Virus record (IMG/VR): IMGVR_UViG_3300032281_000616
Span: 96,001 to 160,000 of that record
Strand: one strand, 5' to 3'
DNA: 64,000 nt
Origin: a virus
Lineage: Duplodnaviria; Caudoviricetes
The position numbers were made by a program, and so were the translations under genes. Positions 39,867 through 62,485 of this stretch are shown in pieces. The notes under the pieces were generated by a model. The model made no database searches. It saw only the letters and a program-made list of their open reading frames with translations, and was not told the origin of the DNA. Position 1 is the first letter of the stretch; each line of letters begins with the position of its first letter.

Positions 39867-39898
39867 GCATACTCTAGTGTTTCATCACTAGAGTATGC
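39867..39898. repeat. 13-bp perfect inverted repeat built on the AAACACTA motif
   Basis: GCATACTCTAGTG-TTTCAT-CACTAGAGTATGC. Confidence 0.9.
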
Positions 39899-39939
39899 AG
39901 GGGCATCGATCATTACAACCGATGCCCCTTCCTAGTGTT

Positions 39940-40161
39940 TCAACTCCAGAGGAGTTCGTTGAGTTCGAACTGGTCAACCTTGCGCACGTTGCAGGCAGCG
40001 GCGGACCTCCTTTGTTGCGGGCTCCAAGGCTTAGGGCCGAAGGCATCATGGAAAGCCTCCTCTTCACTGTCACCATGCCCTAGTAGGCACTGGCGTTTGA
40101 GATACGCGGAGCGTTTGGTGATGACATAGGCGGCGGTATCAGGCGTTAATGTGGTGGACAT
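39940..40161 (-). CDS. Small GC-rich hypothetical protein
   Basis: Motif promoter with N6-ATG; TGA stop overlaps the next motif. Confidence 0.75.
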   Translation of the reverse strand: MSTTLTPDTAAYVITKRSAYLKRQCLLGHGDSEEEAFHDAFGPKPWSPQQRRSAAACNVRKVDQFELNELLWS

Positions 40162-40584
40162 GATTGAATTCTATTCTAGTGTTTCAAACGGAAAGGGGTG
40201 GCCTCGCGGGGAATCGAACCCTCATAATCTGTCCGGGGGTAGCTATTCCCCATCTCCACCTCACGCTTGCAATCGCTGGCGGTTGATTATGTTTTTCCTA
40301 GCCCTCTTCAAGGGCTACCCGCACCGAGCGGAAAAGGCATTTAAGCTACTTACATCCTATCTTAGTGTTTCATCCGCTGGGTGGCTTCGTCACTCTCCTT
40401 GGCAATGACTAGCAAGTGGAGTAAAAAGGAACGGGTGAACTATCGCCACCCAGCGGCATCATCATTCTGCTCTAGTGTTTCATCCTCTGAAGCACTTTCG
40501 AAAGCTCTTAGAATCGCTTCCAAGCTCTCGAAAGTGCCGCCCCTTGTCCGGGTTAGGGACAAGGGGCGGGAAGGGCTTGGAGGG

Positions 40585-41085
40585 TTATTCCGCTGCGGTT
40601 GCGGGGGCGGTTGCAGTCGCCACCATTGCGGCAATCGCATCTTCAGACAATCCAAGGGCCGCGCCATACTTACGAATTTGAGCAACCAACCCATCGATGG
40701 TCGGCGTCTTGCTAACGGTTTCAGAATAGTCGCGAACCTTAATCGCTTCCCATGCCTCCCCGATCAAATCCTTGGTTTCGAAAACAGGGTTGCCGTCCTC
40801 ATCCAAGGCTTGCACCTCAACAGCTTCCCCATCGACTTCGACCGATTCCATCACTGGCACGGTTTTGAAGCGGCGATCCGTTGCGACCTTGTAAAGCACC
40901 TCAAAGCACTCTTTTTCAGACATAGGGATGGGAGGGGCCTTGGCAACGGCAGCGGGGCGGGTGAAGCCCTTGCGGAGTTCAGTGGCCTCATTTTTGAGGT
41001 TTTCTGTGATTCCGAACGTGAATTGAACGGGCTTCTTAGCAGTTGCGGTTGGGGCGGCGATAGGGGTAGTAGTGGTGGTTTGCAT
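40585..41085 (-). CDS. Ala/Thr-rich hypothetical protein
   Basis: 166 aa, GC-rich codons, motif promoter at 41104. Confidence 0.75.
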   Translation of the reverse strand: MQTTTTTPIAAPTATAKKPVQFTFGITENLKNEATELRKGFTRPAAVAKAPPIPMSEKECFEVLYKVATDRRFKTVPVMESVEVDGEAVEVQALDEDGNPVFETKDLIGEAWEAIKVRDYSETVSKTPTIDGLVAQIRKYGAALGLSEDAIAAMVATATAPATAAE

Positions 41086-41193
41086 AACGTCTATATTCTA
41101 TCTTAGTGTTTTATTCGACTTGCTTCTTTCGAGAGCTTCCCGCATCCTTTCTGGTAGGATGAACCATTTCGTGCTTTCATTCTGTCCTAGTGT

Positions 41194-41274
41194 TTAATGC
41201 TCTTTGCTTTCGAGGTAGGCATCCAATAGGGCATCGTTCTTTTCGGTGGAGTCGGTGGGAATCATGATGATCAT
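41194..41274 (-). CDS. Micro-ORF (26 aa)
   Basis: MIIMIPTDSTEKNDALLDAYLESKEH; bracketed by motifs at 41292 and 41188; stop lies inside the motif. Confidence 0.55.
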   Translation of the reverse strand: MIIMIPTDSTEKNDALLDAYLESKEH

Positions 41275-41437
41275 GCCCCTTCATTCTGCTCTAGTGTTTC
41301 AACGACCCACTCACCCGCTTTTTTCATTCCCTTATGTATAGGATGGGAATCGGGGGCGTTTTCTAAATATACGGCGAAACAAATCAGGAGAATTATGGCG
41401 GAAAGATATTTCATCCCCTCTATTCTATCCTAGTGTT

Positions 41438-41605
41438 TTATCGTTTCTTGAAGTCCGAAAAACCAATCATAAGACTCCAAAAGTGAATCCACTTCTTAAT
41501 CTTAGCAATTCTGGTCTTATTCAATACTCTCACAGTCTTATTTACTGGAGTCAAAGTATCATAGTACCTACCAGAGATCTTATCTGTATAGTTGATGGGT
41601 TTCAT
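41438..41605 (-). CDS. Micro-ORF (55 aa)
   Basis: MKPINYTDKISGRYY...; motif at 41624; TAA inside the motif at 41431. Confidence 0.65.
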   Translation of the reverse strand: MKPINYTDKISGRYYDTLTPVNKTVRVLNKTRIAKIKKWIHFWSLMIGFSDFKKR

Positions 41606-42068
41606 GGTAAACTAATTCTACCCTAGTGTTTTATAAACAATTTTAGCGGAAGAAATCATGATAATTTTCCGCTTGCGTTCTTTAGGATATGTTTTTTTAT
41701 CAGTATGGTTGAAAGACCCGAGATTGTTGAAAAGGCATCGAACCTTTATTAGTATCATTTCATTTATCTAGTTTGTTACAGTAACTTTCTGCTTGGGAAT
41801 GTTATAGCAGTCTCCCTTCTCTATCTTATCAGGAATCATTATCATGGAGGCAGTTCAGTGAACCTTATCCCCGCTTATAGTAAGAGGATCTTTTAAGACA
41901 ATATTATTTAGTCTGGTGATCGTATTTTTATATATAAGAAAGTGTGTCCCCCTCCCGTTCCATCACCACATATTCATCGGGAGGGGGACTGTTTACCACC
42001 ACAGTAAATGTTTTATTAGATCATGGCAAGTTTGTCAGATCAATAAAGTTATTAAATTGATAAAGTTA

Positions 42069-42170
42069 TCATGACAAACTCCTATAGAGATTGTATAACT
42101 CTTCTCGATGCCATTCATCGATATACAATTCTCTATCCAATCTTATCCTCAACCATTCTTTCAGTCGCAT
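42069..42170 (-). CDS. Micro-ORF (33 aa)
   Basis: GAACACTA-GCG-TAGACT-N6-ATG; MRLKEWLRIRLDRELYIDEWHREELYNLYRSLS. Confidence 0.55.
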   Translation of the reverse strand: MRLKEWLRIRLDRELYIDEWHREELYNLYRSLS

Positions 42171-42295
42171 GTCCTTAGTCTACGCTAGTGTTCTATTGAT
42201 ATATTCCAGTGCAAGTTTTCTACCACACTTTGATCAATCTGTCAAATCAACTTTTTTATTAGATTGATTTAATTGTCAGATCAAAGTAATAATAG

Positions 42296-42523
42296 TTATG
42301 ATTCAAAGGTATCTACGATCATATTGTAGAACTTACAGGCGAATTCCTCATCAGATTTGATACCCGGAAGATTACATATCTTCCATGATTTTTCCTCGAT
42401 AAGATTTTCTATAGTAACAGAACTAGTATTACCTACAATCAAACCGAGATACTTCAGTTCATTCTCAGTAAGTTCAAGGGTAAAAATACGCTCAGATGGA
42501 GGAGTAATATTAGTAATTTTCAT
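42296..42523 (-). CDS. Hypothetical protein
   Basis: Motif promoter with N6-ATG. Confidence 0.75.
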   Translation of the reverse strand: MKITNITPPSERIFTLELTENELKYLGLIVGNTSSVTIENLIEEKSWKICNLPGIKSDEEFACKFYNMIVDTFES

Positions 42524-42544
42524 AGTGTTATTCTAGGTTAGTGT

Positions 42545-42847
42545 TTATTGCTTAGAACCCCATGCCAAGAGTTCCTGATAGGTTTCAAACTCGTAAATCT
42601 TAACATTACCTTCATCATTGAGCATCTTCATACATTCTTGAAGAGTCTCAGTTCCTTCAGAATACCAGTTATTACCCTCAGTCATAGAGAAAAAGAATTT
42701 GGGTTTGAATGATAGTTTACCCATATCATCAGATGCAATATATCCCGGATAGTTATCAGATGAAATGAATCCATAATACTTCATGGAATTCACCTCTTTA
42801 ATATCTACAACGGACTTACTTTGCTCCTCAAAAATTACAGTCTTCAT
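42545..42847 (-). CDS. Hypothetical protein, paralogue of 42968-43261
   Basis: Shared EVNS.K.YGF...TEGN.W...YxFxTxxEL..W pattern. Confidence 0.75.
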   Translation of the reverse strand: MKTVIFEEQSKSVVDIKEVNSMKYYGFISSDNYPGYIASDDMGKLSFKPKFFFSMTEGNNWYSEGTETLQECMKMLNDEGNVKIYEFETYQELLAWGSKQ

Positions 42848-42884
42848 ATACGTTTATTCTATTCTAGTGTTCTATAAGAAAAAG

Positions 42885-44427: not shown

Positions 44428-44619
44428 TTAGTATGAGAAGTTTTGTGAGAGGGAAGTAGTCACTCCATTAGTCTTAAAGATAGGAGTTGATCTTGAGCTA
44501 AGGGAACGCTTGATAGAAATGGCACCTTTCTTAGGCTTAGAATATACCATTTGAACCCATGATGTACGAAGCATCTTTTGTGGGGCGCGGAAGTCTGATT
44601 TGTTATTGTTGCTGGACAT
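44428..44619 (-). CDS. Small basic protein
   Basis: Motif promoter with N6-ATG. Confidence 0.6.
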   Translation of the reverse strand: MSSNNNKSDFRAPQKMLRTSWVQMVYSKPKKGAISIKRSLSSRSTPIFKTNGVTTSLSQNFSY

Positions 44620-44647
44620 GCTCTGATTCTAGGTTAGTGTTTGATTA

Positions 44648-44974
44648 TTAAAGATTTGCATCGAATCCATCGCATCCGATAACATTACCCTTATCATCTC
44701 TGATAAGATTACCGGGAGACAATAGATCTTTTCTTGCTGGTGCTGCCATCTTTACCAAGGTTGATACGATATAATAAGTATCATCGACTTGATCCGGTAG
44801 ATCCATGACATCTCCCACTGTATTCTTATAGATAGGAATATTCATGATACTGCAAAGTTCGTGTCTTTGCATATTAACTCTTGGAACCGGATAAGACTTA
44901 TCAGGATCAATCGACATCTTGAAATCTTTTGAGATGATATTGATCGTGTGAGGTGTAAGATTGATGAACTTCAT
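44648..44974 (-). CDS. Hypothetical protein (INLTPH family)
   Basis: Motif sets the start at MKFINLTPH; YYIVS, DLLSPG.LIRD..G.VIGC. Confidence 0.75.
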   Translation of the reverse strand: MKFINLTPHTINIISKDFKMSIDPDKSYPVPRVNMQRHELCSIMNIPIYKNTVGDVMDLPDQVDDTYYIVSTLVKMAAPARKDLLSPGNLIRDDKGNVIGCDGFDANL

Positions 44975-44999
44975 GTCAGTATTCTGCTTTAGTGTTTCA

Positions 45000-45302
45000 T
45001 CAGAGGATTTTCTTGAGAGCACTGAGGAATCTCTTTCCTGAATTACCAGATTTATTCATAATAAATAAACCAGAATTTAGGGCTGCGATTGCACCAATTC
45101 CGCCACAATCAGTTCCCCAGATACTTCCACCCTTCAAAGGAACCATTGAAAGCAAGTGATAGTATTCCCCATCACACTCCACTAACTTATCCATATCGTT
45201 TGGAGTAAATGACTTATGAATAGATATCACCCTATCATTCTTGATATTGATATTCCATCCATACTTTTCACATTCTGATTTGAAGTCTTGTGGGGTGATC
45301 AT
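45000..45302 (-). CDS. Hypothetical protein
   Basis: Motif promoter with N6-ATG; TGA abuts the next motif. Confidence 0.75.
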   Translation of the reverse strand: MITPQDFKSECEKYGWNINIKNDRVISIHKSFTPNDMDKLVECDGEYYHLLSMVPLKGGSIWGTDCGGIGAIAALNSGLFIMNKSGNSGKRFLSALKKIL

Positions 45303-45350
45303 GTTTATATCTTAGGCTAGTGTTTCATGAATACTTAACTCTATTTTTCA

Positions 45351-45509
45351 TTATTCTTGAGAGAATTTATCAATCATCCTACGATACTTTTTCTTTTCCC
45401 TACGCATCGTGCGCTTTTTGGTAGCATTACTACCAACATCGAAACAATCATCGTAATCTTTTTTCCCAGAGTGAATATGAGAACGACTATAATAATTTCG
45501 AACTTGCAT
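45351..45509 (-). CDS. Micro-ORF (52 aa, basic)
   Basis: Motif promoter with N6-ATG; MQVRNYYSRSH...KKRTMRREKKKYRRM. Confidence 0.6.
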   Translation of the reverse strand: MQVRNYYSRSHIHSGKKDYDDCFDVGSNATKKRTMRREKKKYRRMIDKFSQE

Positions 45510-45585
45510 GTCAGTATTCTACTTTAGTGTTTCATCTATCCCAACTCAGGGTAGTTTAATGAGATACCCTAGCTCATTGTTTTGA

Positions 45586-47115
45586 TTATTCTTCCCGATT
45601 GCGGCGTGATGGAGCATCTGTAAGATGAATAAGACTTTCCATCGCACGAGTCGCTGCAACATAACGAAGATGTTTTTCTTGCTGTTGCATCCATGGAAGA
45701 ACTGCGTATTTGGATGGAGAAAATTGCGCATCACCCAACCAGTAAACAGTTTTCCATTCAAGACCCTTAGCCTTATGAATAGAACTGAAGGTCACGATAT
45801 TCGGAAGATTCCCATCCTTAGAATCAGTGAACATATCAGCGATAAGTTTCTCCAGAGAATAAAGATCATCCTTTCCGAGAGATTGGACACGTTCAATCAG
45901 AATGATCATGGTATCCAACTTATCTTCCAATTGTTGCATCTTAGCATAAGAAGCTTTCTCGAACTCCTTATTGAAGAATTCATTAAGTTTGATGATGAAG
46001 TCGGAGAGAGTCTTAACCTTTTTCCACTTATTCACCAGTTTGATAAGATCCTTACCAATATCTTTTCCTTCGATACGGCAACCGATACCTTGACGAATAA
46101 GAGCGAAAGCAAGGGCAACATTAGGAGCATTGTTTCGGCAAAGAATCCCAACATTACGATCAAGCTTGATATTCATAGCTTGATCGACAAACTCTTGATA
46201 CTTCATAGAAGTGACAGAACCCTCACAGTTTCCTTCATAGGCCATGATATCAGGAAAGAACTCTTGAGCAGTCTTAATGATATTCTTTCCACAGCGGTAG
46301 CAGATGGAAAGTGGAAGCTCTTCACATTCAAAACGCTCACGAATGAGATTCATTGAATCATTCTCAGCACCAGTGAATCCCATAATTGCTTGTCCTTCAT
46401 CACCAATAAAGATACAACGACCATCTGGTTTGACAAGTTTAGCAGCAAGAAGTTTACGACAAACATTTGTATCTTGAGCTTCATCAACGACAACCCAATC
46501 ATATTGTTGACCCTTGATATCATAGATCAGGGGAAGATACTGCATATCATCAAAATCAATTGAACGAAAATCAAGATTGGAGTCCCTAAGAACTTGCTTG
46601 GCAATTTCAATAACTTCACCAAGATCAGCATCAAAGTCTGTATCGATATCATGATGAGTGATGATTTCCATCCATGCTTGAGTATCATCGATAGAAGTTT
46701 GACCCTTAACACCAAACGCATTTTGTTTAGCGAAACCTACAAGTTTAGTAATAAAGTTGCGAGTATATTGAAGATCTTGACGTTGGCAATACTTTTCAGT
46801 GATCCAATAAACTTTACCATTCTTTGGAACATTATGCCAACCTTTAGCTTTATAGAGCATACCCTTACCCGTTGCATGAAATGTTCCAGAAATAGCATTA
46901 GGAACGCCCATACGAGAAAGTTTCTCTTTAAGTTGCCATGCAGCTTTAGCACCAAAAGCCAACATGATAACATCACCTTTCATGAATTGTGCGCAATGCG
47001 TCACAAGAAAAGTTTTACCGGAACCAGCACGGGCTGGAATGATAAGGTTTCTCTTATTAGGGTTAGGATTACGAACCCAAGATTCGACATCAAGTTGTTG
47101 TTGAGATAGTTGCAT
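45586..47115 (-). CDS. UvrD/Rep-type superfamily 1 helicase
   Basis: ARAGSGKT, VVVDEAQD, FIGD..QAIMGFTGA, YRC, SIHKAKGLEW, YVAATRA. Confidence 0.9.
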   Translation of the reverse strand: MQLSQQQLDVESWVRNPNPNKRNLIIPARAGSGKTFLVTHCAQFMKGDVIMLAFGAKAAWQLKEKLSRMGVPNAISGTFHATGKGMLYKAKGWHNVPKNGKVYWITEKYCQRQDLQYTRNFITKLVGFAKQNAFGVKGQTSIDDTQAWMEIITHHDIDTDFDADLGEVIEIAKQVLRDSNLDFRSIDFDDMQYLPLIYDIKGQQYDWVVVDEAQDTNVCRKLLAAKLVKPDGRCIFIGDEGQAIMGFTGAENDSMNLIRERFECEELPLSICYRCGKNIIKTAQEFFPDIMAYEGNCEGSVTSMKYQEFVDQAMNIKLDRNVGILCRNNAPNVALAFALIRQGIGCRIEGKDIGKDLIKLVNKWKKVKTLSDFIIKLNEFFNKEFEKASYAKMQQLEDKLDTMIILIERVQSLGKDDLYSLEKLIADMFTDSKDGNLPNIVTFSSIHKAKGLEWKTVYWLGDAQFSPSKYAVLPWMQQQEKHLRYVAATRAMESLIHLTDAPSRRNREE

Positions 47116-47164
47116 AAGTGGTGGTTTCTCGTTACGTCCCTATTCTAGGCTAGTGTTTCATCAA

Positions 47165-47365
47165 TTAACCTTCAGTGTCAAACATCTGAACAGTGAAACC
47201 TTCCCCTTCAAAAATTCTATTCTCATAATGAAGATCAAGAGGAATGATTCCATATTCTTCCAACACTTCACCAAATTTATCCTCTTGATCCGAAATAGAA
47301 TCAAGATAATGTAGTTCAGATACCTTATTATTTTCAGTGATAATTACTAGATAGTGTGTAAACAT
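47165..47365 (-). CDS. Small acidic hypothetical protein
   Basis: Motif promoter with N6-ATG. Confidence 0.7.
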   Translation of the reverse strand: MFTHYLVIITENNKVSELHYLDSISDQEDKFGEVLEEYGIIPLDLHYENRIFEGEGFTVQMFDTEG

Positions 47366-47390
47366 GTTAGTATTCTAGGCTAGTGTTTCA

Positions 47391-47666
47391 TCAGTCAACT
47401 ACGGACCAAATTACATCAGTGACAATTTTTCTCTTCTTCATCGGTAGATTCTTCACATTTTCAATGATTTTTTCACAATCATCGTAAGGAATACCGCGCA
47501 AAGCTAGATTGTTTGCTGTGATGGTTCTATTAAAAGTCTTAATCCATTGAGTTTTTTCATTATTCTTAGCAATTAGATAGAATCGTTTATCGTTAGATCT
47601 TTCTTCAGTGTCGGTGTAATAATCCCAAACCAATTCAACATGATAAGTATCTGGTGAGTTGTGCAT
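47391..47666 (-). CDS. Hypothetical protein
   Basis: Motif promoter with N6-ATG; stop abuts the next motif. Confidence 0.7.
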   Translation of the reverse strand: MHNSPDTYHVELVWDYYTDTEERSNDKRFYLIAKNNEKTQWIKTFNRTITANNLALRGIPYDDCEKIIENVKNLPMKKRKIVTDVIWSVVD

Positions 47667-47688
47667 GACCTAATCTTAATCTAGTGTT

Positions 47689-47871
47689 TCATACTGTAAT
47701 ATCCAACTTAGACTTCTTACGATTCATGATGACTTGAAACCATTCATCCAGTTGATCTTTACCAGATTTTCCACCATAACCCTGAAGTTGATTTTGTCGA
47801 ATACTCATCCCCATATTGAGAGCTTTATCAACTAGAAATTTTACTTCTTGTTCTGTGTATGTATTTTCCAT
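47689..47871 (-). CDS. Hypothetical protein
   Basis: TGA inside the motif at 47682. Confidence 0.65.
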   Translation of the reverse strand: MENTYTEQEVKFLVDKALNMGMSIRQNQLQGYGGKSGKDQLDEWFQVIMNRKKSKLDITV

Positions 47872-48080: not shown

Positions 48081-48350
48081 TCACTTCATAGGGACAAGAA
48101 GAGTAATCATTTGCTCATCCCCATCTTCATCCTTAACATAGAGATTGGTTCCATCGAATGCGATATCTCCACAATCCTTCATAAAGACCAGACTGAATGA
48201 ATTATTATCGTCTTCCCAATCAAATTCCAACCACCAATCTTCATCATTAGAATCTTCCCATGATGGATAAACCAGAACATTATCATCGATAACGCAGGCA
48301 GAACAATCTTGAATAAGTTTAAGTGCTTCGGCTTGTGTGATGTTTATCAT
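48081..48350 (-). CDS. Small acidic hypothetical protein
   Basis: Motif promoter at 48369. Confidence 0.7.
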   Translation of the reverse strand: MINITQAEALKLIQDCSACVIDDNVLVYPSWEDSNDEDWWLEFDWEDDNNSFSLVFMKDCGDIAFDGTNLYVKDEDGDEQMITLLVPMK

Positions 48351-48375
48351 AACGTCCTCAGTTTAGGATAGTGTT

Positions 48376-48630
48376 TCAACGATACAAGTAGCGATCAGTA
48401 TCATCAGGAAAATCCGAAATGACACAATTATAAAGTTGTTCATCTAAGAAAACATCCATAATAAGTTCGATCTTATTATTAGACAAATGAGGTTCTTCCA
48501 ACTTTGTCTTGATATATTCAAGAGCATTTTCTCTTGTAAATCTTAGTGTTGAGTGTGCGCCCATATTATTGTGTTCTTGTTTTACCTTTGGTAATCTTCG
48601 GACCACCTTCATTGTATCCGGTCCAAGCAT
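48376..48630 (-). CDS. Hypothetical protein (start probably internal)
   Basis: TGA inside the motif at 48369. Confidence 0.6.
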   Translation of the reverse strand: MLGPDTMKVVRRLPKVKQEHNNMGAHSTLRFTRENALEYIKTKLEEPHLSNNKIELIMDVFLDEQLYNCVISDFPDDTDRYLYR

Positions 48631-49080: not shown

Positions 49081-49228
49081 CTCTTACAAAGTATTTGTAA
49101 TCAGGATAATCTTTAGGATGATCAAGAGACATAATACCATTCTCGGTGGAATGATCGAAATCACGAAGTTTCCAATCTTCTACAAAGAAACCAGAATCAT
49201 TAGGATCAATTTGATAGTCTCGAAGCAT
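49016..49228 (-). CDS. Hypothetical protein
   Basis: Motif promoter with N6-ATG. Confidence 0.7.
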   Translation of the reverse strand: MLRDYQIDPNDSGFFVEDWKLRDFDHSTENGIMSLDHPKDYPDYKYFVRVGGGWRGFNKKVNARRYYKQD

Positions 49229-49249
49229 GAGAGTATTATGGTTTAGTGT

Positions 49250-49540: not shown

Positions 49541-49561
49541 GTTACTATTGTGGTTTAGTGT

Positions 49562-53235: not shown

Positions 53236-53310
53236 TGAGAGAGACAGGATTCGAACCTGCATCGATCCATTACGGTACTACGGAGTAGAATTCCGTTCCG
53301 ATACACTCCC
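53236..53310 (-). tRNA. Pseudo-tRNA lacking the D arm (TCT in the loop)
   Basis: GGGAGTG/CTCTCTC; ACGGA-ATTCTAC-TCCGT; long variable region; GCAGG-TTCGAAT-CCTGT. Confidence 0.45.
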
Positions 53311-53328: not shown

Positions 53329-53565
53329 TTATGGTGGCAACTCAGGACCAACATAATCAAAAAATCCAGTTTCAGTATTATATGCTAAATTTGGATCTGT
53401 TAGTTCTCCAACGATATAATCAATATAATCATTGACTGCTTCTAGTTGTTCTCTAGAATATCGACATCCTTCAGATACGCTCTTATCAATATCAATATCA
53501 TTATCTCTTCCAGATAAGATCCATTCAACAATCTCTTGTTGAGTCATGTTTTGTTGTTTCAACAT
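53329..53565 (-). CDS. Small acidic hypothetical protein
   Basis: AAACACTA-AAG-TATAAT-N6-ATG. Confidence 0.72.
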   Translation of the reverse strand: MLKQQNMTQQEIVEWILSGRDNDIDIDKSVSEGCRYSREQLEAVNDYIDYIVGELTDPNLAYNTETGFFDYVGPELPP

Positions 53566-53751
53566 AGTCTTATTATACTTTAGTGTTTTATGTGACCATT
53601 CTCTTTCAGATATCTAATGATAGCATCTTGGTCTGACTTTGTGTAATATCTTTTCAGTTTTCGTCTAGTTTGAATTGTATCCAAACCTTTGTATGAATTG
53701 ACAAAGGATTCATGGAATACTAAACCTTTGATGACAACACTCACAATAAAA

Positions 53752-55304: not shown

Positions 55305-55472
55305 TTATCCTACATATTCTTCAGTGTCAATATCAATCAATTCATTGTCGTAAACTGATCCATCCTCTTCATTGAATACACATTCCATATCCATGATCTT
55401 ATCATTGAGATCATCTTCATCTTCAGCATTGATAAAGACATTAAATTTCATTGTTACGATGTATTGCTTCAT
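55305..55472 (-). CDS. Micro-ORF (55 aa, very acidic)
   Basis: Motif promoter with N6-ATG; MKQYIVTMKFNVFINAEDEDDL... Confidence 0.65.
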   Translation of the reverse strand: MKQYIVTMKFNVFINAEDEDDLNDKIMDMECVFNEEDGSVYDNELIDIDTEEYVG

Positions 55473-55497
55473 GTCAGTAGTTTACTTTAGTGTTTCA

Positions 55498-55870: not shown

Positions 55871-56194
55871 TCAAAAGATTTGGTTCAACATATCCATAAC
55901 TCTTTCCTTGAGCCTAACATCCCAACCGGGAACTCTATTGATTCTTTTTGTTTTAAGGATACCTTTGTTTGTTACTGTATTAACCGCACATATCCTGACA
56001 GCATCAGTACCGCACTTCTTCGATACACCATTAGGAGAAATTGAAGAGTAAACAAATAGACTGATATTTGGATTCTTTTTAGTTTGATAAGCGTATACAT
56101 ATTCATTACCCTTAATGGTTTTGCTCCAGCCTTTATCATGCTTTAGAAGAGCATCCATTTCCAATTCTGTAATAGTGCAATAAGTAGCAGCCAT
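55871..56194 (-). CDS. Hypothetical protein
   Basis: Motif promoter with N6-ATG; GTDAVRI...KRINRV.GW. Confidence 0.75.
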   Translation of the reverse strand: MAATYCTITELEMDALLKHDKGWSKTIKGNEYVYAYQTKKNPNISLFVYSSISPNGVSKKCGTDAVRICAVNTVTNKGILKTKRINRVPGWDVRLKERVMDMLNQIF

Positions 56195-56219
56195 ATTAGG
56201 ATTGTGAGTTAGTGTTTCA

Positions 56220-56622: not shown

Positions 56623-57039
56623 TTAGACGCCGATTTCCACCACAGTCTCGACATCTGAATCATCAGAACTTCCTGATACTTCTGCCTTAAGTTGTGCAGT
56701 AAGTTCAGCCAACTTCTTACGAAGACGCTCTTGCTTCTTAGCTTCCTTAGCAGCAGCCTTTTCTTCTTCTGTAAGAACCACCTTCTCAACCTTAACCTTC
56801 TTAGCAAGATTAAGACCATCTACCACGATGGCAAAGGTATCCACTTCTTGTGGATCACCATTATCATCAGGCATAAGCCCTACTTGATTGTTGAATGCTA
56901 CTTCTAGGAGAAGAGTGATTACACCTTTATCAGTAAGGTTATAATCTTCCTTCAACTTTTGAAGTGTTGCCTTTTGTTCTTCGCTAACATTCACTACGAC
57001 TTGTTTAGCGACCGACTTCTTTTCTGTTTCAGTTTCCAT
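56623..57039 (-). CDS. Hypothetical protein with an E/K-rich helix
   Basis: Motif promoter with N6-ATG. Confidence 0.75.
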   Translation of the reverse strand: METETEKKSVAKQVVVNVSEEQKATLQKLKEDYNLTDKGVITLLLEVAFNNQVGLMPDDNGDPQEVDTFAIVVDGLNLAKKVKVEKVVLTEEEKAAAKEAKKQERLRKKLAELTAQLKAEVSGSSDDSDVETVVEIGV

Positions 57040-57068
57040 ACCGTTATTTTAGTTTAGTGTTTAATCGT

Positions 57069-57266
57069 TTATTTTCCTACCGTGAAAGCAATGATTAGAG
57101 CAATCGCAATGATCAACAGAACCAAAGCAAAGCTAATCCAAATGGGGGATAGAACCCACCACCATGACCATGCAATATATCCCGTAAGTTTTAGGCCAAT
57201 GAAAAGCACAGTCAAAAGACCTACAAATCCAATGCCTCCAGATGATGTTGTAGTATTATTACTCAT
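57069..57266 (-). CDS. Small membrane protein (GIGF.GLL...LKLTG.I.WSWWWVL.PIW family)
   Basis: Recognisable phage membrane motif; motif promoter with N6-ATG. Confidence 0.78.
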   Translation of the reverse strand: MSNNTTTSSGGIGFVGLLTVLFIGLKLTGYIAWSWWWVLSPIWISFALVLLIIAIALIIAFTVGK

Positions 57267-57287
57267 ATTGTTATTTTATTCTAGTGT

Positions 57288-57806
57288 TTAATCAATATAT
57301 TCTTCAGGATTATCCTTATAAGCTTGTTCCATATCAGACTCTTGTTTCTTAGTAAACCAATCCATCATATAAAGACCAAGAGCATCCCTAAGAGCAGGGA
57401 TAAATCCATTGTGTTTGGAATATTCTTTAAAATCAGAAGATGGTGGTTCCCAATAACCATAAGATTCATACGTTTCGTAACCAACTTCGAACTTTAAGAA
57501 GTTTTCTGATGCGATTACAATCACACCATCCAAAGATAGACCATAGGGAGTGTCATAAGACATAAAAGAATTCTCAACCCTTTCGAATTGACCAAATTTC
57601 TCATTAATAGATTTCAGAAATCCGTTGAATGATTTACGAACACTTTCACAATACGAGATATTACGAAGGATGTTTCGAACTTCTGATTCAGTTCCCACAC
57701 CATAAGTAAGTTCAGCATCATGCCAATCTTTATCAGGTGTTTTTACTAGAAGGTTTTCCCAACTACAATCATCTTCTAGGATAGTCTCAACTTTGAACTC
57801 GATCAT
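57288..57806 (-). CDS. Acidic hypothetical protein
   Basis: Motif promoter with N6-ATG; stop inside the next motif. Confidence 0.75.
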   Translation of the reverse strand: MIEFKVETILEDDCSWENLLVKTPDKDWHDAELTYGVGTESEVRNILRNISYCESVRKSFNGFLKSINEKFGQFERVENSFMSYDTPYGLSLDGVIVIASENFLKFEVGYETYESYGYWEPPSSDFKEYSKHNGFIPALRDALGLYMMDWFTKKQESDMEQAYKDNPEEYID

Positions 57807-57828
57807 GGTGTGAGTTTATGTTAGTGTT

Positions 57829-58362
57829 TCATCCTTCAACGTCTTCCGGTATATCAAGGATATTATCAGCCTTGATGGTGAAGCATAGAGGACGATCTTC
57901 ATCAGTAGGACTAAGAAGTTTCTTAGCTTCTGATGGGGGAAGATACTCAGCAAACTTAGCCTTATCAACAATCTCACCGTTTACATAATACACAGACTTT
58001 GGAATATGATTATTAGCTTGGGATGGATAAAGACGAAGATAAAGATTATCCTTATGTTCGATGACATGAGGAAACCATGATTTCTTTGTCAATTTGTCCA
58101 CATACCACGACCCCCATGGTAGTTCACCAACTTCACCACGTTCACCAGATGCAATTCCTTCCTTCACAGCAGAAAGATTAGCATAATTTACACCAGCTTG
58201 CACCACGGCAACTGTGTGTTTCTCAAGGATAACACCTTCTTTCTTAAAAGAAGCAGCAGGTGTAGGATTGCTTTTCCATGATGCTTTTACAAATTGACCC
58301 TTACAAGAAAGGATTTTGTTGCGAATAGCTTCAGCACTTAGGGGATTAGTTGTCGTTGTCAT
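57829..58362 (-). CDS. Hypothetical protein
   Basis: Motif promoter with N6-ATG; stop inside the next motif. Confidence 0.78.
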   Translation of the reverse strand: MTTTTNPLSAEAIRNKILSCKGQFVKASWKSNPTPAASFKKEGVILEKHTVAVVQAGVNYANLSAVKEGIASGERGEVGELPWGSWYVDKLTKKSWFPHVIEHKDNLYLRLYPSQANNHIPKSVYYVNGEIVDKAKFAEYLPPSEAKKLLSPTDEDRPLCFTIKADNILDIPEDVEG

Positions 58363-58384
58363 ATCGTTAGTATATCTTAGTGTT

Positions 58385-58612
58385 TTATTGATACTTTGTA
58401 ATTAGTGGATGTTGATTAGTAAACTTATATGTTTTACCTTCCCAACCACGAATCTTTTGACCTTGCTCATTATAGAAATGAGAGATAGATCCATTGGTTG
58501 AAGAGATGATCATATTAGTAGTTTTACGAGCAGATTGAATCTTCTGATCGAAATCCTTTGTGGTTAGTTTATAGAATAGATTGATTAGTTTTTTCATATT
58601 AAAAATCTCCAC
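58385..58612 (-). CDS. Hypothetical protein
   Basis: Stop inside the motif at 58378. Confidence 0.6.
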   Translation of the reverse strand: MEIFNMKKLINLFYKLTTKDFDQKIQSARKTTNMIISSTNGSISHFYNEQGQKIRGWEGKTYKFTNQHPLITKYQ

Positions 58613-58913
58613 TTTCAGAAAACCGTAGTTGGAATTCTCTCAACATGCTTTCTCTTTTGGGTGTCATTTCACCTTTCCAGATTGGAAATAGTTTACAATC
58701 TTCGTCTTGTGCAACCAACACATGACAGGTCCATGATACATTATAGACTGGGATATTACACACACCATCATCCCAATCGTACCAATCATCCCCATCACTC
58801 ATATATAAAAAACATGATGGCATATCATAAACATGATCTCCATCTAATCTAAATGCCTGTAAAGCTGGTCTTGTTTTATCAACTAATTTGATATACCAAT
58901 CGGGTGGTTTCAT
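58599..58913 (-). CDS. Hypothetical protein
   Basis: Motif at 58929 with N6-ATG. Confidence 0.7.
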   Translation of the reverse strand: MKPPDWYIKLVDKTRPALQAFRLDGDHVYDMPSCFLYMSDGDDWYDWDDGVCNIPVYNVSWTCHVLVAQDEDCKLFPIWKGEMTPKRESMLREFQLRFSESGDF

Positions 58914-58920
58914 ACTCTCA

Positions 58921-59175
58921 TTATTCGTTAGTGTTTAATAGATAATTAGATTCCATATCCATCACACCATCCGCTATCATAATACTAACGATAGCTGTAA
59001 AGGTTATTTCATTAAGAGGATCACTTGGTTTGATGATAGGATCTACAACTTTACCATCGATCACACTATATGTAGCCAAACCTTTGGGTATGATCTTACC
59101 TGATTCTACCTCATAGAAAACATCATGTAGAAAACCTACAGTATCATACATCTCAAAGTATCTATGAATATTCAT
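58921..59175 (-). CDS. Hypothetical protein
   Basis: 84 aa, packed with its neighbours. Confidence 0.62.
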   Translation of the reverse strand: MNIHRYFEMYDTVGFLHDVFYEVESGKIIPKGLATYSVIDGKVVDPIIKPSDPLNEITFTAIVSIMIADGVMDMESNYLLNTNE

Positions 59176-59176
59176 G

Positions 59177-59581
59177 TTAGTATTTTTCCTTTATGTATTT
59201 TTCTCCATCATAATACCACAAATTCTTATACCCAACGGCCCTTAAATTTCTTAGGCAATTCGAGCATGGTTTTGATATAGCGGTTTCTCCTAGATTATTG
59301 AGTCTCACATTCACAAAGGTTAGATGGAAACAATCCTCCAATCCAAGTCGAATCAAGGATGAAATTTCTGAATGCAATCCAGCCTTATAATTTCCTTGTG
59401 TTCTATTGGATTTGTATTGACCAAACTTATAGTATAAGTTTTGCTTATCATATGAATTATTACCAATGGTAATCAATTTAGATCCATGATATACGAAAGT
59501 TGTATGGAAACTCTTACCCGATTGATACAAAGGCTTCATCGCCCTAGTAATATCTTCTAAACGGGAGAAGTTAATTGCCAT
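59177..59581 (-). CDS. Zn-dependent cytidine/dCMP deaminase-fold protein
   Basis: HSE and SKPCSNC Zn motifs; IGNNS. Confidence 0.8.
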   Translation of the reverse strand: MAINFSRLEDITRAMKPLYQSGKSFHTTFVYHGSKLITIGNNSYDKQNLYYKFGQYKSNRTQGNYKAGLHSEISSLIRLGLEDCFHLTFVNVRLNNLGETAISKPCSNCLRNLRAVGYKNLWYYDGEKYIKEKY

Positions 59582-59602
59582 GAGTGTATCTTACTTTAGT
59601 GT

Positions 59603-60292
59603 TTACACAGTCAAAGCAAACCCAGTCTTATCAATCTTAGCATGACGCTTACCTTTCAAGGCAACGATGCAACCCTTCGGATCAAGAAACCTAAGATCAT
59701 GATCATCACCACTTACAATGCGCTTACCATTAAATTTCTTAGGTTGTTCACCATTAAAAACGATAGCAACATTTCCCTTACTTCCAAGAATAGCTTGACA
59801 CTTGAGGTCATTATCTTCCTTTCTAGAAAAGGTTAGATGATAATTTTTAGGAAGCTTCTTCTCCAAGAATTCTACCATACGATCAAAATCTGGAGTGTAA
59901 TCATAAAATTGAACATCATCAAACATCTCCATAAGAGTCATGCCGTTATGCTTAATCTTATGCCAAGGTAGATCACTCGTGAGATTCAATCTAAAACAAG
60001 GAGTAAGACCCTTCTTCAAAGACTTCTTGATAGCTGAAGAAATTTCCTTAATAAGTTGTTCCATGAACCCATTCTTATTAGTGAAGAAGTATTTTGTCTT
60101 ATTGATACGGGCTAATTGAACAGATGAATAAGCACCCATTCCAGCCGTATTCAAACACGCAGCACGACAACCAGCACTGGAATTCTTACAGACATTAAAA
60201 CCTGATAATTTTTCAGGAGCAAGATGGATACCAAATGTGAGATATCCAAGATCAAGAGACTTTTTTAATTTTGTGTTTGTGGTGAGAAGCAT
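59603..60292 (-). CDS. GP88-family protein (Cys-cluster, radical-SAM-like)
   Basis: VCKNSSAGCRAACL, FRLNLTSD, QFYDYT, YHLTFS, GDDHDLRFLD. Confidence 0.75.
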   Translation of the reverse strand: MLLTTNTKLKKSLDLGYLTFGIHLAPEKLSGFNVCKNSSAGCRAACLNTAGMGAYSSVQLARINKTKYFFTNKNGFMEQLIKEISSAIKKSLKKGLTPCFRLNLTSDLPWHKIKHNGMTLMEMFDDVQFYDYTPDFDRMVEFLEKKLPKNYHLTFSRKEDNDLKCQAILGSKGNVAIVFNGEQPKKFNGKRIVSGDDHDLRFLDPKGCIVALKGKRHAKIDKTGFALTV

Positions 60293-60313
60293 GTCTAAAT
60301 TATACCTTAGTGT

Positions 60314-60532
60314 TTAACCAAATCTTTTCTTAAAATATGTGTATTGTCTTTTTGTATCTAAAATAATTTTAATGTTTATTCTAGGCATACGTCCAAAATT
60401 ATCTTCTTCGATATAATACTTGTAACCTTTCCGACCACAATAATACATTATACATGCAAACAGGTGTGGTTTATTCATCACACTATACATACAAATCACA
60501 GGATCAGGTGGAATATAAAATTTGGATTTCAT
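60314..60532 (-). CDS. Hypothetical protein
   Basis: Stop inside the motif at 60308. Confidence 0.6.
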   Translation of the reverse strand: MKSKFYIPPDPVICMYSVMNKPHLFACIMYYCGRKGYKYYIEEDNFGRMPRINIKIILDTKRQYTYFKKRFG

Positions 60533-60978
60533 GTAAAACTAACGGTTTGTTTGAAACAGTCTGGTTTAGGAATTCTTTTGTATTGATAGTTTTCATCCAT
60601 CTTATACCAAATCTCCCCATCTTCGGGATACTCGTCTCCCCAACAAATACCATCAATACAATTAAGATAGTGTTTCTCAATCAGAAGATATGTATAGTAA
60701 CATTCACAGATACCATAACAATCATTTTGATCCTCCACACATTTGATCAATAGATCTAAGTCGGTGAATGAACCACGATAAGCTTTACCGAAATATGTAT
60801 CAGTTGGATCTGGTTTATTTTCAATCCACCAACGTTTACCAAACTCCATCTTTTCATCTTGAGTCATACCATTGATCAGATTTGTATACTCCTTTTCTTT
60901 CTCTCTACGAGCTTCCCATGCCTTAATATGAGAGTCTGAGAAGGCGATGAGATTGTAAATGTATTTTGGTGATTCCAT
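60529..60978 (-). CDS. Hypothetical protein
   Basis: 149 aa downstream of the motif at 61028. Confidence 0.72.
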   Translation of the reverse strand: MESPKYIYNLIAFSDSHIKAWEARREKEKEYTNLINGMTQDEKMEFGKRWWIENKPDPTDTYFGKAYRGSFTDLDLLIKCVEDQNDCYGICECYYTYLLIEKHYLNCIDGICWGDEYPEDGEIWYKMDENYQYKRIPKPDCFKQTVSFT

Positions 60979-61046
60979 AAGTTTGTCAGATTAGTTAATT
61001 TATTAAATCGATGAAGTTATTATATTCTAGTGTTTAATCATTTATG

Positions 61047-61427
61047 TTACACATATTTTTCAATAGCTTCTTTTAGACGAATTAAATCTCCTTTATCACA
61101 GTCTGGTGATTCAATCCATTGTATGATACCGCTTATGGCTTCATTACTAGTTCCACCAAATAAAAAAGATTCGATTGCATCAAGTCTATCCTGATACATT
61201 TTATCCAAGTCTGCTGTTTTGTTTACGATGCTTTCAAAGACTCTATCGTTTTCTTTGAAGTAATCACAAATTGAATCGTATTCATCATCCCTCAATAATC
61301 CGCTTTTGTAAAAGATTTCAGCTACCTTATATTTGTCTACGTATTCTTCCATATCATCAGAAAGATTGCATGCTTCCACCATGTCATATATAGACCCTAC
61401 AACATAACTCATTCTATCTTCATCCAT
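61047..61427 (-). CDS. Acidic hypothetical protein
   Basis: 126 aa, packed with its neighbours. Confidence 0.7.
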   Translation of the reverse strand: MDEDRMSYVVGSIYDMVEACNLSDDMEEYVDKYKVAEIFYKSGLLRDDEYDSICDYFKENDRVFESIVNKTADLDKMYQDRLDAIESFLFGGTSNEAISGIIQWIESPDCDKGDLIRLKEAIEKYV

Positions 61428-61428
61428 A

Positions 61429-61746
61429 TTAGTTTTCTTTCAAAAATGCGCTTAAAATATCAACTTGAAACATACCAAAGAACATACCTTCCGCTTGCTT
61501 AGAAAAAGCGTAAAAATCAGCAGACTTAAATGCTACATCAGCGGGGTATACAAAAGCATACAGACGACCCTCATGAGATACGTTAATGAAATCTGGTTCG
61601 TATTCACAAATCTTAGCGTCCTTAATTTGTTTATATAGCTTCTCACAACTCTCCTTAGAAGATGGTTGTTGACTAGCTAATATAAATCCCGGACGATCCG
61701 AATACAGACTCTTAAGGTCTTCGATTGGTAGTTCTTTGTATGTCAT
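61429..61746 (-). CDS. Hypothetical protein
   Basis: 105 aa, packed with its neighbours. Confidence 0.7.
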   Translation of the reverse strand: MTYKELPIEDLKSLYSDRPGFILASQQPSSKESCEKLYKQIKDAKICEYEPDFINVSHEGRLYAFVYPADVAFKSADFYAFSKQAEGMFFGMFQVDILSAFLKEN

Positions 61747-61927
61747 TTTTAATAAAATTCAAATCCTTTTTACTATACCATCCAATCCAACTTTCATCAA
61801 ATTCTACAATATATTTTCTAATTTTAGAATCCCAACCACTTACAACACCCGTTTTATTGAATGTTAACATTTTGTTGTTTTTTATAGAGACTATAGTGTT
61901 TGTATATTTACTCATACCCTTATCCAA
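61712..61927 (-). CDS. Small SH3-like hypothetical protein
   Basis: GVVSGW....YIVEFD..WIGWY...DL pattern. Confidence 0.5.
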   Translation of the reverse strand: MDKGMSKYTNTIVSIKNNKMLTFNKTGVVSGWDSKIRKYIVEFDESWIGWYSKKDLNFIKNDIQRTTNRRP

Positions 61928-62457
61928 TAGGTTTCGCCACCCGCAGAAATATCAAAGTAATCTGACTGAAGTTCTTGAGCAGCAGACTCCCAATCAATTT
62001 TCATATGATTGAATGGCCATTGACCTGATTGGAATTCTTTAGGAAATTCACATACATCATTGGCTAATTGTTCTGCATATTCTGTAAAGTATGATTCGTG
62101 GATCAACCCTTCTCCATAAGACCAATCAGGTGAATCCTCACCTTGAGAGATTACTTCAGTGAGTAGATCAAGTTCATCCTTATCAAAGGACTGATTGAAT
62201 TGATCTAGAGCTTCTTGTGCTTCTTCGACAACTTCATGAAGTTCATTAAGTCTACGTCTAATAAACGCAACCGAATCATCATCCTCATCCTTACTGTCTG
62301 GATCAGTATCATTTTCTCGAAGAAAATCATCAAGATCTCCCTTAGCTTCTTCCAGTGCTTCCACTAAAGAATTATACTCGTCTTGTAATTCTTCATGGCG
62401 AGTAATGATGTCGCGGGAATCGATGATATCGTCACCCCAATTGAAATCTGTTTTCAT
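61912..62457 (-). CDS. Very acidic protein, ArdA-like antirestriction candidate
   Basis: About 30% D/E; FTEYAEQL...IDWESAAQELQSDY; motif promoter with N6-ATG. Confidence 0.55.
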   Translation of the reverse strand: MKTDFNWGDDIIDSRDIITRHEELQDEYNSLVEALEEAKGDLDDFLRENDTDPDSKDEDDDSVAFIRRRLNELHEVVEEAQEALDQFNQSFDKDELDLLTEVISQGEDSPDWSYGEGLIHESYFTEYAEQLANDVCEFPKEFQSGQWPFNHMKIDWESAAQELQSDYFDISAGGETYWIRV

Positions 62458-62485
62458 AGTGTTATTTTATTCTAGTGTTTTATAA

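Follow-up and report, generated by a model that had tools for sequence, protein, structure and literature searches.

A box in place of the −35 element, set next to the start codon: a probable promoter class in a distant T4-type phage

Introduction

Why should one octamer stand before dozens of small phage genes, nearly always in the same orientation and often at exactly the same distance from the start codon? The question is raised by a 64,000-nt stretch of viral DNA (hereafter the window), positions 96,001–160,000 of the 202,205-bp IMG/VR record IMGVR_UViG_3300032281_000616, in which the octamer AAACACTA (hereafter the box) is followed after three nucleotides by a hexamer that resembles the −10 element of sigma-70 promoters. 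A first-pass annotation of the window had proposed that the box takes the place of the −35 element in a promoter of leaderless mRNAs, and all of the sequence-level tests that we ran agree with that proposal. The repeated element is best read as a promoter. We consider it probable that this promoter belongs to the phage, combines an ordinary −10 with a box that stands in for the −35, is recognised by a dedicated reader and starts transcription at or near the AUG, giving a leaderless mRNA per gene.

The record has terminal repeats and a G+C content of 33.8%. It encodes a gp23-type major capsid protein with about 33% identity to the capsids of cyanophages (cyanomyoviruses), a gp55-family late sigma factor (phrog_234, E 4.5e-25), rIIA, rIIB and many tRNAs, and on this set of genes it is to be placed as a distant T4-type phage. 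A megablast search of 16 kb against the phages in GenBank gave no match. The window was found only in DNA runs, from unlabelled metagenomes and freshwater metagenomes (small shares), and contigs of relatives were recovered from several other metagenomes.

Results

Box, hexamer and start codon keep fixed distances

The window holds 44 exact copies of AAACACTA, against 3.13 expected and a maximum of 12 in 100 dinucleotide shuffles. Of these, 39 lie on the minus strand between 39875 and 62480 and five on the plus strand, at 22812, 24698, 26424, 31760 and 39833; the variant GAACACTA adds three minus-strand copies (42193, 42872 and 49251). The earlier tally of about 40 minus-strand and five plus-strand octamers was accurate, down to the position of every plus-strand copy. 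The coordinates that it gave for the copies of the array were right too, but the array does not end at 62482 as had been stated: it extends in the same orientation past the window, as far as about 193 kb in genome coordinates. The whole genome carries 73 copies of AAACACTA (6 forward, 67 reverse), as compared with 13 and 14 for the reversed control. The open reading frames (ORFs) of the array are small and variable, each placed behind the same module, and the stop codon of the preceding gene falls within the motif in 36 of 54 cases.

A hexamer of the form YAnnnT begins exactly three nucleotides past the octamer at 42 of the 47 window sites and at 61 of the 73 genome copies. The first-pass annotation had credited every copy with such a hexamer, which fails for five copies of the window: 39833 (plus strand), 39940, 58936 (AATAAT), 60675 and 61901. 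Its count of 27 array copies with an ATG exactly six nucleotides past the hexamer was reproduced on the same minus-strand copies, to which 24698 and 26424 are added to make 29 of the 47 sites. When the distance is taken from the octamer, an ATG stands exactly 15 nt downstream in 40 of 95 matches to NAACACTA, a set that includes the non-consensus TAACACTA and CAACACTA. Start codons directly preceded by box and −10 number about 65 in the genome. An alignment of 65 sites gives the consensus tGATn-AAACACTA-RAn-TAnAAT-N4-(C/T)-ATG, and positions further upstream are without information content; the octamer is thus confirmed as a unit, but the conserved element is longer than eight nucleotides and takes in the tGATn flank, RAn and TAnAAT. 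Position −1 is a pyrimidine in 57 of the 65 sites and +1 is an A in 53, as would fit a start site on the ATG.

Evidence that the hexamer serves as a −10 element

Across seven genomes, 23 of 388 box sites have TTGACW at a spacer of 15–17 nt from the hexamer, where 1.0 is expected (P ~2e-23), and most of these hybrid sites have a 16-nt spacer, like the canonical promoters of the clade. Such an enrichment at the right spacer argues that a holoenzyme which reads TTGACW uses the hexamer as its −10, and on this evidence the hexamer after the box is a real sigma-70 −10. Its form and place are those of a canonical −10: a TAnnnT-type hexamer with the consensus TAnAAT, about 7 nt before the predicted start.

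TTGACW is found at only five of 61 box sites in this genome. In the copy at 24698, TTGACT stands at a 16-nt spacer, so that both elements are combined as had been described, and the copy at 60315, which had been singled out for its missing −35, has no TTGACA-like hexamer. No conservation is seen at −40 to −29 in the 65-site alignment, and a scan of the array with the canonical-promoter consensus found 91 sites against 89.7 expected, without excess. The TGn of an extended −10 (TG at −15/−14) occurs at 0 of 65 box sites, as against 13 of 20 canonical promoters of the same genome.

One might then suppose that the strength of these promoters comes from the −10 alone, and that the box is an operator at which a phage or host repressor shuts the class off. 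A box that overlaps the core promoter would be at the site of repressor action, and hosts rich in leaderless mRNAs often use −10-only promoters, as in Deinococcus-Thermus (PMC12340547). We regard this as improbable. The invariant 3-bp gap (61/73) and the strict orientation are expected of a component of the initiation complex rather than of steric blocking, the box is not palindromic, and the canonical promoters of the genome keep a strong −35 together with TGn, so the host polymerase seems to need more than a −10.

Box copies also precede genes that are not translated. The copy at 22812–22828 (+), with the hexamer TAAAGT and no ORF, heads a tRNA cluster, lying about 90 nt upstream of its extent at 22923–24001. 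Another copy without an ORF, at 40464–40480 (−; CAGAAT), has its predicted +1 (40457) on the first base of an 84-nt structured non-coding RNA (40374–40457, −) that fills the gap between two box copies. This RNA has a minimum free energy of −36.6 kcal/mol (z −4.3, 0/200 shuffles as good), its 12-bp closing stem begins at the predicted +1, and in the stem of a homologue from the relative G002 a C-G pair is replaced by G-C, a compensatory change. Copies before the tRNA cluster and the structured RNA indicate a signal that acts in transcription, not translation. The alternative is an RNA-level signal, either a translation enhancer or a processing site upstream of the cistrons of polycistronic transcripts, and it would suit the fixed distance to the ATG, a genome that lacks Shine-Dalgarno sequences and the want of terminators between cassettes (11 terminator-like sites in 20 kb of the array versus 8.2 expected, none positioned at boxes). 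It is barely credible in view of the copies before tRNA and non-coding RNA genes, of a second half that conforms to the −10 consensus and is combined with −35 hexamers at the right spacer, and of the fact that the two other ATG-adjoining signals of the genome are recognised promoter types.

A promoter for a phage-encoded RNA polymerase, after the model of T7, T3 and SP6 or of AR9, would start transcription in or just before TAnAAT and leave a leader of 11–13 nt. The T7, T3 and SP6 promoters have CACTAAAG or CACTATAG just before +1, and those of AR9 read AACA-N6-TW. The likeness is that the conserved block, at about 22 bp, has the size of a T7-type promoter, that AACACTA(A/G)A is similar to the cores of the T3 and SP6 promoters, and that AACA-N6-TA fits the AR9 late consensus. 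This explanation has very little chance of being right. The Pfam profile of T7-like RNA polymerases (PF00940) had no match, in a search that control genomes could not validate; TTGACW at the right spacer (23 versus 1 expected) points to use of the hexamer by a sigma-70 holoenzyme; a constant N6 before the ATG would have no explanation; and the phage encodes the late sigma factor gp55 and so uses the host polymerase.

Relatives keep the geometry and change the box

The first-pass annotation had named a motif scan over the genome and its relatives as a check. Besides the 73 copies of the genome itself, it finds 24–63 copies of AAACACTA-N3-YAnnnT in each of five other IMG/VR records (control 0–2), whose DNA is about 70% identical where alignable, with 0–75% of each fetched locus alignable. 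The octamer stays exact among genomes whose rIIA proteins share only 43–48% identity. Within a genome it is invariant while N3, N6 and flanking positions vary, and the N3 preferences are lineage-specific. An invariant octamer among varying neighbours indicates selection by a reader and argues against mere copy-and-paste.

Descent could be invoked instead, with a mobile promoter cassette homogenised by recombination in the manner of the PeSL cassettes of T4-type phages, a process that may also add to a promoter function. The small variable ORFs each behind the same module, the gene content that differs between relatives amid conserved modules, the lineage-specific N3 preferences and the documented shuffling by PeSLs (PMC2839356, PMC4122927) all suit this idea. 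As an account of why the octamer is kept it is very improbable: the octamer is invariant in one genome while the adjoining N3 and N6 vary, it is exact between genomes at the rIIA divergence just given, and it has no stem-loop or terminator partner (again 11 sites versus 8.2 expected).

Loci of rIIA were gathered by an alignment-based IMG/VR search, a single-protein rIIA search there having given nothing. The rIIA promoter of the closest relatives carries AAACACTA, and that of others AAACACTG, AAACGTTA, A(A/G)AAACTA or TAAAACCG at the same position; in the most distant rIIA genes an ordinary TTGACA-N17-TAnnnT stands in place of the box. The boxes of sister phages at this position are TAAAACCG, AAAAACTA, AAACGTTA and AAACACTG. 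Whole-genome scans of relatives found 31–72 copies of the lineage's own box in each, with the same N3 and N6 geometry. Orthologues of box-driven genes carry the box of their own lineage in 11/15 cases in G006, 10/14 in G007 and 13/19 in G008, and never AAACACTA. Two such genes of the window are a 177-aa ORF (58360–58385, −; TATACT-N6-ATG), conserved in 6/6 sister genomes, and a 107-aa ORF (56192–56217, −; CACAAT-N6-ATG) with orthologues in G001, G006, G007, G008 and G010, each under its own lineage's box. All box variants share A(−26), AA(−22/−21), AC(−19/−18) and A(−14), and the canonical and late promoter consensus is common to the sister lineages despite their different boxes.

Among 185,579 bacterial species genomes scanned, the sole multi-copy match was to phage contigs of this clade in one Flavobacterium metagenome-assembled genome; no sampled genome, then, uses the motif as a promoter type of the host. 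The contigs concerned (L279, L292, L295 and L298; GenBank JAYVIK010000225.1 and JAYVIK010000086.1) are filed under Flavobacterium sp., are syntenic with genome positions 152–181 kb and are full of AAACACTA promoters; they are probably phage DNA binned with the bacterium. This binning is a weak hint at Flavobacterium as host, which would fit the G+C content and the lack of Shine-Dalgarno sequences and conflicts with promoters of the Escherichia coli −35/−10 type. The −7 box of Bacteroidota, TAnnTTTG, is not enriched upstream of genes (6 versus 9.9 expected).

The main rival to a phage-encoded reader is the host holoenzyme itself, which might read the box unaided through sigma region 3, the beta-prime zipper or alpha on the A-tract spacer, boxes then differing by host. 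No phage reader was found, the core common to all variants looks as if a conserved host surface were contacted, and the box genes resemble the first genes that a phage needs. We nevertheless judge this unlikely, since none of the bacterial genomes scanned has several copies of the motif of its own, exactness over 8–13 bp is unusual for spacer contacts, and the shared canonical and late consensus suggests similar host polymerases, yet the boxes differ. Lineage-specific boxes, together with the lack of a multi-copy bacterial genome, point to a reader that is most likely phage-encoded and co-evolving with the box. The asymmetry of the box, its fixed 3-bp gap and the concerted switches of sequence fit a phage factor within the initiation complex.

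All three promoter classes adjoin the start codon

Fusion to the ATG is not special to the box class but common to all three promoter classes of the genome. T4 late promoters have TATAAATA at −13 to −6, which gp55 recognises together with gp33 and the gp45 clamp. This genome, with its gp55 homologue, likewise has nTAAATA fused to the ATG, as a motif separate from the box and before other (structural) genes, so that the AAACACTA class is not a late promoter. Counted over the whole genome, nTAAATA stands exactly 5 nt from the ATG at 43 genes; at 13 genes the distance is 6 nt, and at six genes it is 7 nt. ATG-adjoining late-box sites number 84 as against 14 for the reversed control, and the same count in T4 gives 16 versus 20, with no enrichment. 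With the late box at a fixed short distance from the ATG, late genes are also predicted to be leaderless. Examples in the window are TAAATA-N5-ATG before a 379-aa gene (1641–1654, +), ACTAAATA-N5-ATG before a 298-aa gene (7691–7704, +) and TAAATA-N6-ATG before a 509-aa gene for a CCA-adding-enzyme-like protein (36365–36379, −).

The canonical class, cTTGACw-N16-(TGn)TAnnnT, lies 5–10 nt (mostly 6–9) before the ATG. One such site is in the window (38954–38990, +; TTGACT-N16-TATAAT-N6-ATG before a ferredoxin-like gene, phrog_3704), and others are at genome positions 25647, 41810, 57561, 62189, 65459, 83690, 92768 and 192720. These promoters precede the clamp loader, a helicase, a dTMP-kinase-like gene, a glycosyltransferase and others, and the arrangement is kept at conserved replication genes in five genomes. 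Canonical and late classes are both placed before the ATG at a distance that puts +1 on its A. This placement of two recognisable promoter types offers the strongest indirect support for start sites of the box class that would likewise fall on the ATG.

Shine-Dalgarno sequences are not enriched in any class of genes of the whole genome. The earlier remark that the geometry leaves no room for such a sequence is therefore weak evidence, since no gene of this genome has one. How ribosomes might enter is suggested by the 171 genes without a promoter at the ATG. Of the 137 with an upstream gene on the same strand, 97 start within −20 to +10 nt of the upstream stop, 32 as ATGA overlaps, which implies that promoter-less genes would be translated by termination-reinitiation. 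With no Shine-Dalgarno sequences and with promoter-less genes coupled to an upstream stop, a 5′-terminal AUG would be the ribosome entry signal. Entry by re-initiation or at a 5′-terminal AUG explains the cassette-like look of the region, with one promoter per uncoupled gene.

The box-driven genes comprise rIIA, rIIB, a UvrD-type helicase, an RNA ligase, a kinase-like ATPase, a Thg1-like enzyme, a nucleotidyltransferase, tRNAs, small RNAs and dozens of small ORFs. Functions of this kind are pre-replicative in T4, and the box class would accordingly be taken, from gene content, to drive pre-replicative genes. The label ‘early’ in the first-pass annotation has the same source and no other.

Search for a reader of the box

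Six-frame Pfam searches for MotCF (PF09158) and AsiA (PF09010) found nothing at E ≤ 1, a result that leaves very divergent analogues possible. A phylogenetic profile of box versus box-less genomes let 107 proteins through the filter; it is unselective because the box-less phages with rIIA share only 4–20 proteins with this genome. Profile searches of conserved candidate proteins against the Protein Data Bank (PDB), and a search of them in the protein atlas, returned nothing.

Two candidates were considered and set aside. A 114-aa protein (genome 61810–62154, −; L111:1810-2154) is conserved in G001, G006, G007 and G009 (50–89% identity) and ends in PKVISI(D/N)DL. Its size and its acidic-hydrophobic tail, of the kind that binds the clamp, brought the late co-activator gp33 to mind, which is a guess only, with no match in the PDB or another database. 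A wide fold search likened the 177-aa protein to a WYL/Sm-like barrel at Z 5.5, within the tool's stated noise.

Several findings weigh against the mechanism that we favour. Sigma region 4, region 4_2 and HTH_3 were all without a match in the genome, and the single match to Sigma70_r2 is the late sigma factor gp55, the only sigma-like gene, so a reader was not found among these families. Nor is an earlier-expressed activator obvious: the five gene families with conserved canonical promoters (the helicase, the dTMP-kinase-like enzyme, the glycosyltransferase, a 149-aa membrane zinc-ribbon protein and the 114-aa protein) include no DNA-binding candidate. Two conserved box-driven proteins were folded, the 177-aa protein (pLDDT 78) and the 107-aa protein (pLDDT 80), and Foldseek found nothing for either model in the PDB at E ≤ 0.001. 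In about a quarter of the copies the ATG is 7–26 nt past the hexamer, which means short leaders for those mRNAs. Gene starts were taken from simple ORF calling made for this analysis. RNA runs held only small pieces of relatives (5–16% of the sampled words of the capsid gene), which, being kept as contigs, are unable to show 5′ ends. Finally, the different boxes could instead reflect different hosts.

Discussion

Taking the A of the ATG as +1, the element is laid out as tGAT(−28..−25)-n-AAACACTA(−23..−16)-N3-TAnAAT(−12..−7)-N6-ATG. We propose that TAnAAT would be read as an ordinary −10 by a host holoenzyme of the sigma-70 type and that, the −35 hexamer being missing, the asymmetric box exactly 3 bp from the −10 would serve in its place. 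A dedicated factor, either part of the initiation complex or docking on it, would read the box and would be a functional analogue of sigma appropriation by MotA/AsiA in T4 or of sigma adaptation by PafBC in mycobacteria. The start of transcription would fall on the A of the ATG or no more than about 3 nt from it, so that each gene would have its own leaderless mRNA, nearly every uncoupled gene would carry its own promoter, and the 5′-terminal AUG would serve ribosome entry. The motif, its geometry, its association with strand and genes, its conservation and the lineage-specific boxes are direct observations; start site, timing and the identity of the reader are predictions from them.

A broader claim is possible, though we hold it with distinctly less confidence. 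The clade as a whole, one of freshwater T4-like phages, may run its pre-replicative programme through a sigma-adapting or sigma-appropriating factor that has not been recognised before and is unrelated in sequence to MotA and AsiA. This factor would bind a box at −28 to −16, nearer to the −10 by one helical turn than any −35 substitute known so far. Several switches of its specificity may have taken place (AAACACTA, TAAAACCG, AAAAACTA, AAACGTTA, AAACACTG), some 30–70 promoters per genome changing in concert, and almost all of the phage mRNAs may be leaderless or re-initiated, with no use of Shine-Dalgarno sequences.

The principle of a −10 combined with a factor-specific proximal element and no −35 is already known from T4 MotA and mycobacterial PafBC. 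The box bound by MotA in T4, (a/t)(a/t)(a/t)TGCTT(t/c)A, has its centre at −30 and is separated from the −10 by about 12 bp; its core, TGCTTtA, is described in PMC9004378. T4 middle promoters resemble the present class in several ways: both belong to T4-type phages, keep a sigma-70 −10 and replace the −35 with a phage-specific box at a fixed distance, both occur in dozens of copies before pre-replicative genes, and both include some hybrids with a host-type −35. In contrast to T4, the box here is at −23 to −16 (flanks to −28), 3 bp from the −10, and unrelated in sequence; T4 transcripts have leaders with ribosome-binding sites where here the promoter adjoins the ATG; and no MotA or AsiA homologue was detected here. 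The statement of the first-pass annotation that this is not the MotA box accordingly holds for sequence and position as well as for the Pfam searches.

PafBC promoters of mycobacteria (tGTCgg-N10-TAnnnT) have a −10 and a −26 element (−28 to −23), no −35 and the housekeeping sigma factor, with PafBC inserted between sigma region 4 and the −26 element (PMC8635444). They share with the box class a bipartite hybrid design of canonical −10 and activator element without a −35, a likeness of mode and not of membership, and the host group of PafBC is rich in leaderless mRNAs. The box here differs in being unrelated to tGTCgg and in reaching closer to the −10 (−16). There the promoters serve a cellular DNA-damage regulon, here a phage programme; and PafBC is a WYL/HTH heterodimer, whereas no HTH protein was detected here.

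The cassettes also recall the PeSLs of other T4-type phages, with small variable ORFs in plastic regions behind a shared module and a gene content that varies (PMC2839356, PMC4122927). A PeSL joins a terminator stem-loop to a canonical sigma-70 early promoter, whereas the present promoters adjoin the ATG directly and have neither stem-loop nor −35. The cassettes are thus not PeSLs, and where the upstream stop lies inside the motif (36/54 cases) there is no room for a PeSL stem-loop. Promoters fused to start codons are found in Deinococcus-Thermus and in the Thermus phages phiYS40 and P23-45; the middle and late transcripts of phiYS40 are reportedly leaderless. Those promoters are −10-only or extended −10, without an invariant 8-bp box, and the phages are not T4-type and have no lineage-specific box. 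In Deinococcus-Thermus a −10 directly before the ORF makes leaderless mRNA a main mode of expression (PMC12340547).

We found no description of the motif, or of leaderless T4-like promoters, in the literature, in keeping with the claim that the class was undescribed. Three features of it are unusual: the position of the box at −23 to −16, the lineage-specific boxes before orthologues, and the fusion of all promoter classes to the ATG in a system free of Shine-Dalgarno sequences. If our reading is true, T4-type phages have at least one further way besides MotA/AsiA to redirect the host polymerase. The natural box variants before orthologues would be a ready specificity-swap series for finding and dissecting the reader. 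The clade would be a clean case of a large virus that lives almost entirely on leaderless and re-initiated translation, which constrains the possible host. With the three motifs, most genes of these uncultured phages could be assigned an exact start and a predicted temporal class, and short, orthogonal, phage-private promoters would be useful as parts for synthetic biology.

Sites in the window and neighbouring genes

The part of the co-oriented array that lies in the window (39842–62480, −) has 42 copies of [A/G]AACACTA, most of them directly before a small ORF. Unless stated otherwise, the sites that follow are on the minus strand. With the hexamer TAGAAT and N6-ATG are the copies at 40159–40184 (73-aa ORF), 42521–42546 (75 aa), 44617–44642 (63 aa), 45507–45532 (52 aa) and 47363–47388 (66 aa), the last a hybrid with TTGACT at a 15-nt spacer. 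The same spacing is seen with CAGAAT at 44972–44997 (108 aa), with TAAGAT at 45300–45325 (100 aa), 47664–47689 (91 aa) and 59579–59604 (134 aa; a hybrid with TTGACT at a 15-nt spacer, and the same hybrid in the relative G001), with TAGTAT at 50187–50212 (72 aa) and with CACAAT at 49538–49563 (96 aa). CATAAT-N6-ATG is found at 52328–52353 (31 aa) and 52745–52770 (131 aa), and TAAACT-N6-ATG at 50923–50948 (105 aa), 51654–51679 (97 aa), 55470–55495 (55 aa) and 57804–57829 (172 aa). TAAAAT-N6-ATG precedes ORFs of 138 aa (57037–57062), 65 aa (57264–57289) and 181 aa (62455–62480). TATAAT-N6-ATG is found before a 78-aa ORF (53563–53588), which is followed by a tRNA at 53236–53310, and before the 229-aa ORF (phrog_1617) of the copy at 60290–60315. 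The copy with AATAAT (58911–58936) keeps N6-ATG before a 104-aa ORF. Two of the GAACACTA variants have N6-ATG, with TAGACT before a 33-aa ORF (42168–42193) and with CATAAT before a 70-aa ORF (49226–49251), and the third has TAGAAT-N8-ATG before a 100-aa ORF (42845–42872).

Wider spacings are TAGAAT-N9-ATG at 41083–41111 (166 aa) and 41603–41631 (55 aa), CAGAAT-N11-ATG at 41165–41195 (18-codon ORF), CAGAAT-N8-ATG at 41272–41299 (26-codon ORF), TAGAAT-N7-ATG at 41412–41438 (47 aa) and TAAACT-N9-ATG at 48348–48376 (89 aa). At 47113–47158, TAGAAT is 26 nt from the ATG of the 509-aa UvrD-type helicase, which leaves a short leader. On the plus strand, the hybrid TTGACT-N5-AAACACTA-N3-TATGAT-N6-ATG precedes a 78-aa ORF (24698–24723), TATAAT-N6-ATG a 61-aa ORF directly past tRNA-Gln (26424–26449), and CATGCT, with the ATG 17 nt past the hexamer, a 120-aa ORF (31760–31796). 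A copy with TATAAT at 61019–61035 has no ORF within 30 nt. The octamer at 39911–39940 has no −10-like hexamer (AGGGGC) and is probably not a promoter; that at 61868–61901 also lacks one (TCTCTA), and that at 60651–60675 has a poor hexamer (TAATTG) before a 49-aa ORF.

The end of the array at 39833–39882 is marked by a pair of octamers in inverted orientation (39833 on the plus and 39882 on the minus strand), the plus-strand copy without a proper hexamer. Beside them, at 39700–39835, lies an AT-rich non-coding stretch with a 45-bp direct repeat (twice, in tandem). The minus-strand array meets the plus-strand genes here, and the stretch may act as an origin of replication or a divergent control region. 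A GC-rich island follows at 39900–41700 (−), with 47% against 34% G+C and ten box copies in 1.8 kb, which precede tiny ORFs (18–73 codons), the 166-aa ORF, rich in Ala and Pro, and RNA-like stretches. One of its copies (40354–40370; TAGGAT, no ORF) stands before a GC-rich RNA-like stretch, 40190–40347, that ends in a tRNA-like T-loop, GGTTCGATTCC. Rfam recognised no family in the island besides a sub-threshold match to a tmRNA 3′ end at 40209–40221, and the stretch could be a tRNA-like or split tmRNA-like gene not called by ARAGORN.

Within the plus-strand tRNA cluster, at 23100–23850, Rfam tRNAs at 23109–23179 and 23591–23662 were missed by ARAGORN, whose own calls are unusually long (Tyr 91 nt, Pro 96 nt); some tRNAs of the cluster may have insertions. 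In the CCA-adding-enzyme-like protein (509 aa, 34838–36367, −), whose promoter is of the late type (TAAATA-N6-ATG), an HD domain accompanies a poly(A) polymerase/CCA-adding head domain. With a Thg1-like tRNA-His guanylyltransferase (genome 160439–161239) and an RNA ligase, both encoded in the early region, it makes up a sizeable set for tRNA repair and maturation. Pfam recognises two domains in a 645-aa ORF (28415–30352, −), one for intein splicing and one of a LAGLIDADG endonuclease, and several genes for homing endonucleases of the GIY-YIG type lie in the early region, for example at 63150–63845.

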